Assembly (NCBI GenBank): GCA_040398785.1
Contig: JBBATJ010000005.1
Span: 83,717-147,716, forward strand
Direction of reading: 5' to 3'
DNA: 64,000 nt
From: Cypionkella sp.
Lineage (GTDB): Bacteria > Pseudomonadota > Alphaproteobacteria > Rhodobacterales > Rhodobacteraceae
The position numbers were made by a program, and so were the translations under genes. A model generated the notes under the pieces. It did no database searches and had not been told where the DNA came from. It worked only from the letters and a program-made list of their open reading frames with translations. Of the stretch, positions 17,381 through 22,470 are shown one piece after another; positions within the stretch are counted from its first letter, which is position 1; every line of letters begins with the position of its first letter.

Positions 17381-17472
17381 CACAGCGGATCATGGCCGCG
17401 GGTCGGATTGCACATCGTCCAATATTGAACCCGAACGCCGCCGCGCCTTTGATCGGCGCAAAGGTGGAGAAA

Positions 17473-18297
17473 ATGTTCGATCAATCGGCACAGGCAACAA
17501 TGCAGCGCAGTCATGGCAAGGCCATGGTCAGCTTTGCCCTGCGCGGCGGTCAGGTGCGTCTGCGCGATCTGGCGCAATCTGGATCGGCCAAGGCGATGCT
17601 GCCCCGTGTTTGGGGTGCAGTGCCCGAAGTGGTATTTTTGAACACATCGGGCGGCCTGACGGGGGGCGATAGCCTGTCCTATCAGATGGACATCGGTGCG
17701 GAGGCGCGGATCACCGCGACGACCCAAACGGCGGAACGTGCCTATGCCAGCACGGGATTGGCCGCCGATGTGTCAGTGCGCGCCAATGTGGGGCAGGGCG
17801 GGCGGCTGGATTGGTTGCCACAAGAAACCCTGATCTATGAAGACGCACATTTGCACCGCAACACGGAAATTGATCTGGCCGAGGGGGCAAGTTGTTTGCT
17901 GTCTGAGGCGGTTGTTTTGGGCCGTCATGCGATGGGCGAGCGGCCCGTTCGGGCGCGGTTCACCGACACGCGTGTGATCCGCCGTATGGGGCGTCCTGTC
18001 TGGACGGAACGCTTACATTTTAATCCGCAGATTTTCGCACGTGCCACGGATCCCGCGATTTTGGGCGATGCACGCGCCTTTGCCATTATCGCCCTAATCG
18101 CCGATGGGGCGCAGGATTATCTGGCGCGGGTTCGCGCGATTTTGGATGAACCCGCCTGTCGGTCCGCGGCAAGCGGTTGGGATGGGCGGCTGTTGATCCG
18201 CATTATGGCGGCGGATGGATGGCCGCTGCGAAAACAAATCGCACGGGTTCTAACGGCGCTGCGAGACGCGCCTTTGCCCCGTGTTTGGCAATGTTAG
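17473..18297 (+). CDS. ureD: Urease accessory protein UreD
   Basis: [27 protein letters not shown] and WLPQETL. Start at MFDQS (17473) after GGTGGAG. Confidence 0.95.
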
Positions 18298-18307
18298 AGA
18301 GGGAATT

Positions 18308-18613
18308 ATGAACCTTACCCCGCGAGAGCGTGAAAAATTACTGATCTCTGTCGCTGCAATGGTGGCGCGGGGCCGTTTGGCGCGGGGGGTGAAACTGAAC
18401 CACCCCGAGGCGATTGCCCTCATCACCGATTTCGTCGTCGAAGGCGCCCGCGATGGCCGCACCGTTGCCGATCTGATGCAGGCGGGGGGTCATGTCATCA
18501 CTGCCGATCAATGTATGCCGGGCATCTCCGAAATGATCCATTCCGTCCAAGTTGAGGCCACCTTTCCCGATGGCACCAAACTTGTCACAGTTCATCACCC
18601 CATAAGAGGCTAA
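18308..18613 (+). CDS. ureA: Urease gamma subunit
   Basis: [11 protein letters not shown]...KLNHPEA...[18 protein letters not shown]. Confidence 0.98.
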
Positions 18614-18614
18614 C

Positions 18615-18806
18615 ATGAAAAAGACCTTTGCCCTGATCCTTTTGCCAAACGCCGCGCTTGCCCATGCGGGCGATCATAGTCATGTGAATGTGCTGGTGCA
18701 TCTTTTGACAGAACCTGACCATTTGATGATGATTGCCTTGGCAGTGTCTGTCGTGGGTATTGCGTTGTATCGCAAACGCGCCAAACAAAAGGCTGGAAAA
18801 AAATGA
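18615..18806 (+). CDS. 63-aa His-rich single-pass membrane peptide resembling the N-terminus and TM1 of HupE/UreJ
   Basis: Signal peptide (ALA|H), [15 protein letters not shown], one hydrophobic helix and a basic tail. SD AGAGG; stop overlaps the ureB start. Confidence 0.8.
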
Positions 18807-19108
18807 TCCCAGGCCAAGTTTTCCCCGCAGCGGGTTCCATTGAGATTAATGCAGGCGGTGCGACTGTCACCCTGATGGTCGCCAATACGGGCGACCGCCC
18901 GATTCAGGTGGGCAGTCATTACCATTTTGCGGAAACCAATGCGGGATTGTCCTTTGACCGCGCCTTGGCGCATGGGATGCGACTGGATATCGCCGCTGGC
19001 ACCGCTGTGCGGTTTGAACCTGGGCAATCGCGCGAAGTGCGTTTGACCCCCTATGGTGGTTTGCGGCGTGTGTTCGGCTTTAACGCCAAAGTGATGGGGG
19101 ATCTGTAA
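18803..19108 (+). CDS. ureB: Urease beta subunit
   Basis: MIPGQ...[19 protein letters not shown]...[15 protein letters not shown]. Confidence 0.98.
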
Positions 19109-20806
19109 ATGGCAACGCGCATTGCACGCGCCGATTATGCGGCGCTTTACGGGCCGACTGTGGGCGACCGCGTCCGTCTGGGTGACACCGATCTGATTAT
19201 TGAGGTCGAGCGCGATCTGACCACTTATGGCGAAGAGGTGAAATTTGGCGGCGGTAAGGTGATTCGCGATGGTATGGGACAATCGCAGATTTCCCGCGCG
19301 GGTGGGGCGGTGGATACCGTCATCACCAACGCGTTGATCGTCGATCATTCTGGGATCTATAAGGCCGATGTTGGTCTGCGCGATGGGCTGATTTATCGTA
19401 TTGGTAAGGCGGGCAATCCCGATATCCAATCGAATGTCGATATCATCATCGGTCCCAGCACCGAGATTATCGCAGGCGAAGGCCGTATTCTGACGGCGGG
19501 CGGAATGGATGCCCATATCCATTTCATCGCCCCTCAGCAGGCCGAGGATGCGCTGCATTCGGGCGTGACCACGATGCTGGGCGGCGGCACTGGCCCCGCG
19601 CATGGCACTTTGGCCACCACCTGCACGCCTGGCCCTTGGCATATAGAGCGGATGTTGCAGGCATTAGACGCCATTCCAATGAATTTCGGGATTTCAGGCA
19701 AGGGCAATGCCAGCCTGCCTGCGGGATTGGTTGAAATGGTCAACGCGGGGGCCTGCGCGTTGAAACTGCACGAGGATTGGGGAACCACCCCCGCCGCGAT
19801 TGATTGCTGTCTGTCGGTCGCGGATGATATGGATGTGCAGGTGATGATCCATACCGACACGCTGAACGAATCAGGCTTTGTCGAAAATACCTTGGCCGCG
19901 ATTGGCGGGCGCACCATCCATGCCTTTCACACCGAAGGCGCGGGCGGCGGTCATGCACCTGATATCCTGAAAGTCGTGGGGTCGGAAAATATCATCCCGT
20001 CATCGACCAACCCAACCATGCCCTATACCCGCAACACGGTTGAAGAACATCTGGATATGCTGATGGTCTGCCATCATCTGGATCGCAGTATCCCCGAAGA
20101 CGTCGCCTTTGCCGAAAGCCGTATTCGCCGCGAGACGATTGCGGCCGAGGATATTCTGCACGACATGGGCGCGCTGTCGATCCTGTCATCTGACAGTCAG
20201 GCCATGGGCCGTGTGGGTGAGGTGATTACCCGCACTTGGCAAACCGCGCATAAGATGAAGGTGCAGCGGGGGCGCTTGCAGGACGAAACGGGCGACAATG
20301 ACAATATGCGCGTGCGCCGCTATATCGCGAAATATACGATCAATCCCGCGATTGCGCATGGCATTTCGGCCTATATAGGGTCGATTTCGGTGGGCAAGCG
20401 CGCCGATCTGGTGCTGTGGAATCCAGCGTTTTTCGGCGCCAAGCCCGAGATGATCCTAATGGGTGGGATGATTACTGTGGCACAAATGGGCGATCCGAAC
20501 GGGTCTATCCCCGTGCAGCCGATGTATTCGCGCCCGATGTTTGGGGCCATGGTGCGCGGCAGTCAGGCGACATTTGTGTCGGCCGCGGCCTTGGCGAATG
20601 GGGTTAAGGCGCGACTGGGTCTGTCCAAGGATGTTCTGGCCGTTTCAGGGACACGCAATATCGGCAAAAAGGATATGCTGTTGAACAACGCGCGGCCCCA
20701 AATCGACGTGCATCCCGAAACCTATGAGGTGCGGGCAGACGGCGTTTTGCTGACCTGCGAACCCGCCGTTGAGCTGCCCCTTGCCCAACGCTATTTCCTG
20801 TTCTGA
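19109..20806 (+). CDS. ureC: Urease alpha subunit
   Basis: All Ni ligands present: HIH, KLHEDWG, IHTD, FHTEG, VCHHL flap and SSDSQAMGR. Confidence 0.99.
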
Positions 20807-20808
20807 TC

Positions 20809-21252
20809 ATGCCCATTTGCAACAAAATCCTGCGGGCAGGTCATGGGCGCGTCTGCACAGATCAAGTGATCTTGGATTATGACGGGCGGATGCTGCGGCG
20901 CAAACGCTTGGAAACATCGGGCGGCGCGGGGTTTATGGTGGACCTTGCGGAAACGATATCCCTGAATGAAGGCGATGCGTTTGAACTGATCGACGGACGG
21001 GTGATTGCCGTTGTGGCGGCCGATGAATTGGTGGCGGTGATCACAGGCAATCTGCCGCGTTTGGCATGGCATATCGGCAATCGCCATACGCCCTGCGAGG
21101 TGACGGCGACTCATCTGGTGATTCGCCGTGATCCTGTTTTGGAACAAATGGTGGCGGGATTGGGCGGCACAGTGACGACCGCGATTGCGCCGTTCCGACC
21201 CGAAGGCGGGGCCTATGGCTTTGGTAGAACGATGGGGCATTCCCATGCTTGA
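20809..21252 (+). CDS. ureE: Urease accessory protein UreE
   Basis: RMLRRKRL, LAWHIGNRHTP and FRPEGGAYG; ends GHSHA. Confidence 0.95.
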   Translation: MPICNKILRAGHGRVCTDQVILDYDGRMLRRKRLETSGGAGFMVDLAETISLNEGDAFELIDGRVIAVVAADELVAVITGNLPRLAWHIGNRHTPCEVTATHLVIRRDPVLEQMVAGLGGTVTTAIAPFRPEGGAYGFGRTMGHSHA

Positions 21253-21862
21253 CGCCGATCATCTGCGGCTGGTGCAAATCCTATCGCCCGCCTTTCCCAT
21301 TGGCAGTTTCGCCTATTCCCAAGGGTTGGAAACTGCGATCAATGATGGGTTGATCTGGGATGCGGGCAGTCTGAAAAACTGGATTTCCGCCATGTTAGAG
21401 CATGGATCAGGCCGATCTGACGCCATTCTGTTGGCCCATGCACGGGGCGGCGATATTGACTATCTGTCCGACCTTGCGCTGTCCCTTTCGCCGAGTTTAG
21501 AGCGCAGTTTGGAAACCCTTGAACAAGGCCGTGCCTTTGGGGCGCTGACGGGTTTGACGAAAACCTATCCCCTGCCCGTGGCCGTGGGTCTGGCCACGCG
21601 CGATTTGGCTGTGGACACGCAGACGGTCCTGACGCTGTGGCTGCAAGGGTTGGCGGGGCAGTTGGTTTCCGTGGGTGTGCGGTTTATCCCCTTGGGCCAA
21701 ACTGCAGGGCAAGAGGTTCTGGCACTGCTTGGGGCACCAATACTGCAGGTCGCAACCGAGGCGGCGACTGTGCCGCTGACAGCGATCCATTCCACCGCGT
21801 TGGGTGCTGATTTGGCGACGATGCAGCACGAAGTCCAAGACATAAGGATATATCGCACATGA
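21245..21862 (+). CDS. ureF: Urease accessory protein UreF
   Basis: [27 protein letters not shown] and [11 protein letters not shown]. Start at ATG 21245. Confidence 0.95.
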
Positions 21863-22470
21863 ACGGACCCCTGCGCGTTGGTATCGGTGGCCCTGTCGGC
21901 GCGGGCAAAACCACGCTGACGGAAAAACTTTGCGCCGCTTTGGCCCACCGCTGTTCTATGGCGGTGATTACAAATGATATTTATACCCGCGAAGATGCCG
22001 ATTACCTGACCCGCGCCCAAGTGATCCCCGCCGCGCGGATCAGGGGCGTGGAAACCGGCGGTTGCCCCCATACAGCAATTCGCGAAGATGCCAGCATCAA
22101 TCTGGCCGCCGTAGCCGATCTGCGCGCCAACTTCCCAGATCTGGATTTGATCCTAATCGAATCGGGCGGCGACAATCTGGCCGCGACATTTTCCCCAGAA
22201 TTGGCCGACGTGTCGATCTATGTGATTGATACCGCCGCAGGCCAAGACATTCCCCGCAAAAAGGGGCCAGGGGTGACACGCAGCGATTTGTTGGTGGTCA
22301 ACAAAACCGATCTTGCGCCCTATGTGGGCGTCGATTTGGCAATGTTAGAGACGGATACCAAAACAGCACGCGGCACCAGACCCTATGTCATGGCGCGTCT
22401 GCGGGCCAATCATGGGGTGGATGCCGTGGTGGATTTTCTGATCCACCACGGCGGCCTAACGCTCCGTTAG
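21859..22470 (+). CDS. ureG: Urease accessory GTPase UreG
   Basis: [23 protein letters not shown] and NKTD. Confidence 0.98.

Follow-up and report, generated by a model that had tools for sequence, protein, structure and literature searches.

HupE/UreJ proteins are secondary permeases for nickel and cobalt, represented for example by the HupE proteins of Rhizobium leguminosarum and Synechocystis (PMC7689651, PMC2667541), and some HupE proteins carry cobalt (PMC7689651). The window analysed here (the whole stretch of DNA, 64,000 nucleotides) encodes a peptide, mini-UreJ, which resembles these permeases (Pfam family PF04955) in having an N-terminal His after its signal peptide, and an H-x5-D-H motif that opens the first helix. 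It differs from them in size: it has 63 aa and one helix, where the permeases have six helices and about 180-200 aa. The mini-UreJ ORF is a genuine gene and, judged by its sequence, a one-helix paralogue of the HupE/UreJ nickel permease; the feature is real, and a function in nickel supply appears plausible. According to ORFs and Pfam matches, it lies in a urease operon with the order ureD-ureA-mini-UreJ-ureB-ureC-ureE-ureF-ureG (Table 1).

Table 1. Features of the urease operon and of the mini-UreJ gene, in positions of the window.
Feature	Position	Strand	Basis and remarks
ureD, urease accessory	17392..18297	+	Pfam UreD E=9.9e-45; start codon unrefined
ureA, urease gamma subunit	18308..18613	+	Pfam Urease_gamma E=1.3e-45; stop TAA 18611-13
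Shine-Dalgarno sequence AAGAGG	18604..18609	+	Within ureA 3' end; 5 nt ahead of mini-UreJ ATG
mini-UreJ gene, 63 codons + TGA	18615..18806	+	Sequence, homologues, Pfam, dN/dS
Signal peptide (predicted Sec), residues 1-16, A-x-A site	18615..18662	+	Sequence; cleavage inferred
Periplasmic interfacial His-rich segment (predicted), residues 17-36	18663..18722	+	H-x-G-D-H, HX5DH, N-terminal His
Single apolar transmembrane run (predicted), residues 37-52	18723..18770	+	Kyte-Doolittle; AF2; low body conservation
Cytoplasmic basic tail (predicted), residues 53-63	18771..18803	+	Sequence
ureB, urease beta subunit	18803..19108	+	Pfam Urease_beta E=8.5e-43
ureC, urease alpha subunit	19109..20806	+	565-aa ORF; 70-91% identity to related-locus UreC
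ureE	20809-21252	+	ORF; order matches homologues in related loci
ureF	about 21245-21862, longest ORF from 21185	+	ORF; order matches related loci
ureG	21859-22470	+	ORF; order matches related loci (ureEFG block 20809..22470)

The mini-UreJ ATG at 18615 is found 1 nt past the TAA of ureA, and its TGA (18804-06) overlaps the ATG of ureB (18803-05) in an ATGA. The interval of 192 nt between ureA and ureB is thereby filled exactly by the ORF, with no residual ureJ sequence. Two antisense ORFs of 67 and 91 aa (18585..18788 and 18610..18885, minus strand) overlap the gene and were taken as chance frames. In the homologue P0038 and at several Paracoccaceae loci (e.g. L032, L051, L058, L067) the frame is open upstream into the 3' end of ureA ('MAPSLSPSTT...'), and because of such open frames gene callers sometimes give mini products of 75-107 aa. 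The conserved MKR/MKK start fits the predicted signal peptide. In Tabrizicola (L035:6543-7753) two extra genes separate ureB from ureC, and similar gaps of 1.7-2 kb were seen at L034 and L036. Judged by eye, one of these genes encodes a protein of 271 aa that has a Tat-like signal and a motif of cyclase/formamidase type, HxGTHxDxPxH, and the other a 131-aa carboxymuconolactone-decarboxylase-like protein.

The translated peptide has His residues at positions 17, 21, 23, 29 and 36, the last two being part of an intact H29-x5-D35-H36. Its N-terminal junction reads A-L-A/H17-A-G-D-H (the slash marks cleavage, as predicted by the -3/-1 rule and by comparison with the family). Kyte-Doolittle analysis revealed a single hydrophobic run at residues 37-52, and 7 of the final 11 residues are Lys or Arg. 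An AF2 monomer model built on a 77-sequence alignment (pLDDT 83.7; single-chain, and so uninformative on assembly) predicted a coil at residues 10-24, a helix at 25-32, a kink at E33/P34 and a long helix at 34-61. Residues 6-55 aligned to positions 2-53 of the 179 positions of the Pfam HupE_UreJ profile (E=5.5e-4) with 19.9 bits, which is under the 23-bit gathering threshold; an NCBIfam scan of mini-UreJ returned nothing relevant. The H-x5-D-H spacing of HupE/UreJ is kept, but the Pro at +1 and the Gly at +4 are replaced by Leu and Glu, and a Pro stands at +5, giving H-L-L-T-E-P-D-H instead of H-P-x-x-G-x-D-H. The second HupE/UreJ signature, HGxxHGxE, is absent from mini-UreJ. Much of this agrees with the earlier note, which had been made from the DNA letters: its layout (63 aa, own Shine-Dalgarno sequence, 1-nt gap, overlap with ureB) was confirmed by the sequence, its translation and five His were reproduced exactly, and the single transmembrane helix and basic tail that it had proposed are borne out by the hydrophobic run and the Lys/Arg count. 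The homology that it had drawn to the first module of HupE/UreJ is supported: mini-UreJ has the signal peptide, the His at the N-terminus and, where its helix opens, the HX5DH. Conservation of its His pattern held in part: H17, H21, H29 and H36 are conserved, together with G19, P34 and D35, but H23 is replaced by Tyr or Gln in close relatives.

A word-indexed search produced 13 close mini-UreJ homologues of 54-66 aa. Seven of these close relatives were traced, by exact look-up, to metagenomic contigs, and all seven occupied the ureA-ureB slot and showed the stop/start overlaps of the window; a scan of metagenome contigs with the close alignment gave 600 pattern matches, none of which was confirmed. 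No frameshift or stop was seen in the mini-UreJ genes of these seven contigs or of the congeneric genomes. For the operons of these seven contigs and of the window, mean dN divided by mean dS gave 0.22 for mini-UreJ, 0.02 for ureA and 0.09 for ureB, and the pairwise dN/dS values against the mini-UreJ of the window ranged from 0.09 to 0.24 at dS values of 0.5-1.3. The gene is clearly under purifying selection, looser than that on the urease subunits.

A profile of the close set was then used to search 1.84 billion cluster representatives (clusters at 50% identity, E<=1e-3), and 387 related clusters were found. Among the best 150 of them, all but three had lengths of 43-120 aa, and nearly all fell within 56-120 aa; the three exceptions were long repetitive proteins rather than small members, and the two that were read proved spurious. 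The one-helix family was defined by a length of 56-90 aa, a signal peptide, A/H-x-G-[DE]-H at the junction, H-[LF]-[LV]-[TS]-[EQ]-P-D-H, some 15-18 apolar residues and a basic tail, and mini-UreJ carries every one of these elements. The H-x5-D-H spacing was present in 136 of 159 small members. The variant signature H-L-L-T-E-P-D-H is constant across the family, with column frequencies (125 members, near-duplicates removed) of 0.60 for the first Leu, 0.72 for the second, 0.92 for Thr/Ser, 0.90 for Glu/Gln and 0.96 for Pro; Asp35 is replaced in a minority of members, for instance in SPFH or EPAH. Among 148 non-redundant members, a small residue followed by H-x-G was found at the predicted cleavage site in 134 (91%), H-x-G-x-H in 83%, and a net-positive tail in 118 of the 123 that could be scored. 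In the 123 members with both motifs the ectodomain had a median of 22 residues with 4-5 His, and the apolar run after the motif measured 15-18 residues, none of them polar. PF04955 was matched by 62 of 77 diverse members, some of which reached 24-26 bits. Members occur in Alpha-, Beta- and Gammaproteobacteria. Neither Pfam nor NCBIfam has a model that covers them, no description was found in full-text searches of the literature, and in public databases they are labelled 'hypothetical protein' (NCBI) or 'hydrogenase/urease accessory protein HupE' (JGI). The one-helix peptides are a large family that has so far been neither named nor curated. Because of the same-length homologues, the identical operon layout, the low dN/dS and the 387 clusters, mini-UreJ is not a chance ORF, and the view that the gene is maintained rather than decayed was borne out by the dN/dS of about 0.2, the conserved length and the extent of the family.

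To see the genomic settings, one genome per prokaryotic species was scanned with a 17-sequence alignment and the exact pattern HLLTEPDH, which returned 50 loci and biases this sample toward the canonical motif. All 50 encode the same mini architecture. The alphaproteobacterial carriers are Paracoccaceae/Rhodobacteraceae, Hyphomicrobiales and Phenylobacterium; the betaproteobacterial ones are Burkholderiaceae, Rhodocyclaceae, Gallionella, Sulfuriferula, Thiobacillaceae, Hydrogenophilales and Methyloversatilis; and the gammaproteobacterial ones are Marinobacteraceae and Steroidobacteraceae. Cultured Paracoccaceae with the mini in the ureA-ureB slot include Stagnihabitans tardus CYK-10 and Rhodobacter sp. 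SW2. A urease operon surrounds the gene at 35 of the loci, where it takes one of three slots (ureA-ureB, ureB-ureC or directly after ureG). Two more loci have it between hupL and hupC, the genes for the NiFe-hydrogenase large subunit and cytochrome b (L042 by Pfam, L072 by ORFs), which brings urease and NiFe-hydrogenase clusters together to 37 of 50. Since the mini sequence is kept while its slot changes within the same operon type, selection acts on the product and not on the position. HMM scans covering 6 kb to each side of the 50 minis found no full-length HupE/UreJ. A conserved downstream partner of the minis that follow ureG was considered and rejected, as the downstream genes were common only to near-identical genome pairs.

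We then compared the minis with the full-length proteins. The signature H-P-x-x-G-x-D-H-x-x-A-M-V-A-V-G-L-W was found in all 24 full-length proteins examined and the mini signature in none of them; the junction of signal peptide and N-terminal His is also present in these 24, and HGxxHGxE is present in full-length relatives. The window peptide scored 62 bits on an HMM of beta- and gammaproteobacterial minis against 18 bits on an HMM of the full-length N-termini of its own family, a difference partly inflated by the HLLTEPDH pattern with which the mini loci had been fetched; the unbiased profile search likewise ranked small proteins above every full-length N-terminus. In a survey of one genome from each of 301 genera of the window's family, full-length HupE/UreJ was found in about a third. 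The slot between ureA and ureB was occupied by a mini in seven genera (that of the window included), by a UreJ of 175-208 aa in four, and by a variant short His-rich peptide in three. These variants (L026 in G206, L027 in G053, L011 in G019) are other single-helix peptides devoid of the canonical motif, and read A/HEGAHMHPHG..., A/HGGAHMHPHGIDH... and A/HADHSHEALSAEH..SPFH. The shared denominator of the ureA-ureB slot may be an N-terminal-His peptide on a predicted anchor.

Within the genus of the window, for which 24 species genomes and the own genome were surveyed, the mini was detected in eight species (the own genome counted) and a 185-aa UreJ in at least nine. Nine of the 185-aa UreJ genes and six further minis were fetched, and all of them sit in the ureA-ureB slot of orthologous operons, whose UreA and UreC share 89-96% and 82-91% identity, respectively, with those of the window. 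In a tree of UreA+UreB+UreC the nine full-length operons formed a shallow clade (branches of 0.004-0.02, support 98/93) nested within successive mini lineages (L137, the window, L043, L135/136, then other genera). In a broader tree a Paracoccaceae clade of 20 rows was all mini, and Phenylobacterium, which has the mini in the same slot, was sister to the Paracoccaceae urease clade. As the full-length clade is young and nested in mini lineages, the mini is ancestral and was replaced by the full-length gene. The mini is thus the older occupant of the slot, and full-length ureJ displaced it in one young clade. This displacement in situ is the strongest indication in our data that both genes serve the same need of the operon. 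One genome of the genus (G312) has a mini in its urease operon (L132:2514-2711) though its UreABC falls inside the full-length-UreJ clade, and a 203-aa HupE is encoded separately, in another part of this genome (L138:2487-3095), a pattern that points to recombination or to the slot having switched a second time. The earlier note had named a full-length ureJ in the same slot of relatives, as the sign of a recent truncation, as the finding that would speak against it. Such genes are there, in at least nine congeners, but the polarity of the change is reversed; recent truncation is also unlikely because the mini carries the family-wide H-L-L-T-E-P-D-H, which is absent from the local full-length proteins.

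The genome from which the window comes (G000) is 99.94% complete and has a complete urease operon. By profile search and tblastn it contains no full-length PF04955 protein, it has no HG.[AVGS]HG.E motif in any of the six frames, and PF01891 (CbiM/NikM), PF03824 (NicO/NiCoT) and PF13795 (HupE_UreJ_2) gave no members in it. When four full-length UreJ relatives were used as tblastn queries, only residues 1-54 were matched. A weak PF04955 match at C6:150031-150165 was discarded as spurious, being an antisense frame in an ORF for a 200-aa Fe/Mn superoxide dismutase-like protein. A split gene was likewise rejected: no C-terminal half of UreJ was found in the genome (tblastn, motif scan) or near the 50 minis (HMM). 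[quoted passage not shown] A full-length HupE is kept in 2 of 10 mini-bearing genomes, and several keep NicO, CbiM or HupE_UreJ_2. The earlier statement that the operon holds no other nickel transporter was therefore correct, and extends to the whole genome for the four permease families that the survey covered. The mini depends on none of these four families and is not confined to genomes without them.

On this basis, the reading that we prefer, with a probability of roughly 60%, is that mini-UreJ is processed to a bitopic peptide, about 47 aa long, which supports the supply of nickel to urease by capture and hand-over at the membrane. The 63-aa precursor would be exported by Sec and cut after Ala16, leaving a peptide of about 47 aa in the inner membrane, N-out/C-in by the positive-inside rule, with His17 as its new N-terminus. 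Its 20-residue segment (H-A-G-D-H ... H-L-L-T-E-P-D-H) would lie at the periplasmic face or in the upper leaflet, anchored by the apolar helix and the basic tail; P-D-H is placed in the interface of the outer leaflet because the apolar run has only about 15 residues. There, Ni(II) might be bound at the membrane surface by the N-terminal amine, His17, His21, His29, Asp35 and His36, and the bound metal would raise the nickel supply to the cytoplasmic maturation of urease by UreDEFG. Capture and hand-over would be the likeliest mode, in which oligomerisation or a non-specific cation route may take part. The pattern of conservation agrees with this proposal. Entropy over the motif is 0.26 bits in the minis against 0.70 in the full-length proteins, and over the helix body 1.60 bits in the minis against 0.74 in full-length TM1, so that a conserved motif followed by a variable helix fits an anchor plus a putative interfacial site. 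The favoured description is that the conserved part comprises the predicted ectodomain and interface, and that the helix is a generic anchor. Were the peptide only to capture nickel, another carrier would be needed to take the metal across the membrane in genomes without known permeases.

One alternative is that the peptide is itself a minimal permease, in which several copies of the single HX5DH helix associate to form a Ni(II)-selective conduit and so fulfil the entire task of the six-helix UreJ. The exchange of mini and UreJ in one slot within one genus speaks for this idea, as do the finding that the two never occur together in an operon and the three near-complete urease-positive genomes without any of the four Ni/Co permease families, and the small residues (Ala, Gly, Ser) at helix positions +9, +12, +14 and +18 of the minis could support helix packing. 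The membrane part itself argues otherwise: polar and charged residues are absent from every position of the 15-residue run in 125 sequences, and a selective pore lining should be conserved whereas this helix is far more variable than TM1 of the full-length proteins. An apolar and weakly conserved helix favours a collector or anchor over what would be a self-sufficient pore. Moreover, HGxxHGxE is missing from the peptide and from the whole genome, and some mini-bearing genomes retain full-length HupE, NicO, CbiM or HupE_UreJ_2. We consider an autonomous permease unlikely. The bolder form of the idea, in which a single HX5DH helix would be the minimal unit of HupE/UreJ-type uptake, so that the mature peptide (about 47 aa) would form a Ni(II)-selective conduit by self-assembly, or make a non-specific cation route selective, and fully replace the permease, is suggested by the swaps in situ among congeneric species but strikes us as equally doubtful.

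The metal could also be a different one. It could be Co, Cu or Zn that is bound, and the peptide might capture or buffer such a metal or, as small regulatory membrane proteins do, modulate a general cation transporter. About 13 of the 50 loci lie outside nickel-enzyme neighbourhoods. In 8 of these, all in Hyphomicrobiales/Aestuariivirga, the upstream gene encodes a protein with the amidase signature, a metal-independent enzyme; the other 5 loci have other contexts, one of them probably on a truncated urease contig. The eight amidase-linked minis (L040, L041, L048, L050, L059, L066, L068 and L073, from Hyphomicrobiales and Aestuariivirga MAGs) start some 20-150 nt downstream of an amidase gene of 468-500 aa (Pfam Amidase E=1e-107 at L041), and no urease gene was found within 6 kb of them. 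The amidase association is unexplained by a role in nickel supply. Synechocystis HupE carries cobalt (PMC7689651), the N-terminal-His domains of Ang-1 bound copper (PMC12537917), and a similar architecture exists in the unrelated, non-urease DUF6732 proteins described below. Set against this are the 37 loci in urease or NiFe-hydrogenase clusters and the exchange with ureJ in situ, and on balance a role with another metal or in the envelope seems improbable.

The tight coupling of the gene to its neighbours, which is the same in all close relatives, raises a further alternative, namely a regulatory leader: a nascent exported peptide that senses the periplasm and tunes ureB/ureC by translational coupling. 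The precedent is the CutF-type nascent exported metal sensor, a small exported peptide with a metal motif linked to the downstream gene, and His-rich CutF-like proteins occur beside HupE/UreJ genes (bioRxiv 10.1101/2022.11.11.516240). Mini-UreJ is likewise a small exported peptide (by prediction) with a metal motif, and its translation is coupled to that of the next gene in a metal-related operon. CutF, however, has no transmembrane anchor and needs a C-terminal stalling motif, whereas mini-UreJ has a predicted transmembrane anchor and a basic tail, and no proline-rich C-terminus is present in its sequence. In many Betaproteobacteria the mini closes the operon, standing after ureG with unrelated genes downstream of it, and the ectodomain keeps its amino-acid sequence in all three classes; this leaves little room for a leader function. 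Finally, the idea that the gene is the decaying rest of a truncated ureJ, still open only by chance or for the sake of coupling to ureB, can appeal to the full-length ureJ in the same slot of congeners and of other genera, but it is contradicted by the conservation data (dN/dS of about 0.2, 387 clusters with a common architecture), as well as by a family signature unlike that of the local full-length genes, the ancestral position of the mini on the UreABC tree, and the failure to find leftover ureJ in the 192-nt gap or, by tblastn, elsewhere, and it has almost no chance of being right.

To our knowledge, neither a structure nor a transport mechanism is known for the HupE/UreJ permeases. A widespread natural one-helix derivative that retains only the N-terminal His and HX5DH, and that is swapped with the full-length gene in the same operon slot, offers a direct way to assign functions to the parts of the permease. 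Its small size makes it accessible to chemical synthesis, and its mutants are simple to build. A role in nickel supply, if correct, would explain the nickel source of many freshwater and marine urease-positive Proteobacteria that apparently have no transporter. Genome surveys of nickel acquisition miss or miscount the minis because these are labelled either as hypothetical proteins or as full HupE.

Several described protein families share parts of this design. DUF6732 (PF20506) has a signal peptide, A/H-P-G-H, a second His cluster and one transmembrane helix, but it differs from the minis in its GHxHW motif and acidic tail. It weakly matches some members of the mini family (best E=4e-5), and the window peptide gave no match to it even at E<=10 (Pfam threshold 27 bits); DUF6732 was rejected as the home of the mini family on account of the different motif, the acidic tail and the absence of a match in the window. 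Its proteins, with the consensus A/H-P-G-H-L-x-E-V-A-G-H-x-H-W, occur once per genome in 69 of the 301 genera of the window's family. At the ten loci inspected (L114-L123, from ten genera of that family, e.g. G063:C1:219488-219700) no urease gene was found within about 1.5 kb to either side, and our literature search found no paper on DUF6732.

Small single-helix components are also known from metal uptake systems, among them CbtB of CbtAB and the CbiN/NikL subunits of ECF nickel/cobalt transporters. Such proteins are short, some are His-rich, they are encoded beside genes for metal enzymes or transporters, and they are needed for transport. Their genes adjoin that of a multi-helix partner, which sets them apart from mini-UreJ, as no conserved partner gene was found near it at the loci scanned. 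Pfam scans of mini-UreJ and 77 family members gave no match to the CbtB, CbiN or NikL families.

The mini family stays closest to HupE/UreJ itself, as it is also found in urease and NiFe-hydrogenase operons and holds the slot in which sister species have their 185-aa UreJ, and departs from it in the features given above, namely the lost second signature, the altered first one, the weakly conserved helix body and the score below the Pfam cut-off. The anglerases Ang-1 and Ang-2, described in 2025, are periplasmic domains with an N-terminal His that are fused to HupE/UreJ-2 (PMC12537917). They differ from mini-UreJ in that they are folded domains of about 170 aa joined to an eight-helix permease, whereas the mini would present a 20-residue segment on an anchor of its own, unattached to any permease; the two are unrelated in sequence, and the own genome has no PF13795 member. 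What they would have in common is the principle of metal capture in the periplasm by a protein tethered to the membrane, with a ligand, the N-terminal His, that is exposed by cleavage: the anglerase domains have been proposed to 'fish' for metal (PMC12537917), and mini-UreJ may do likewise on a much smaller scale.
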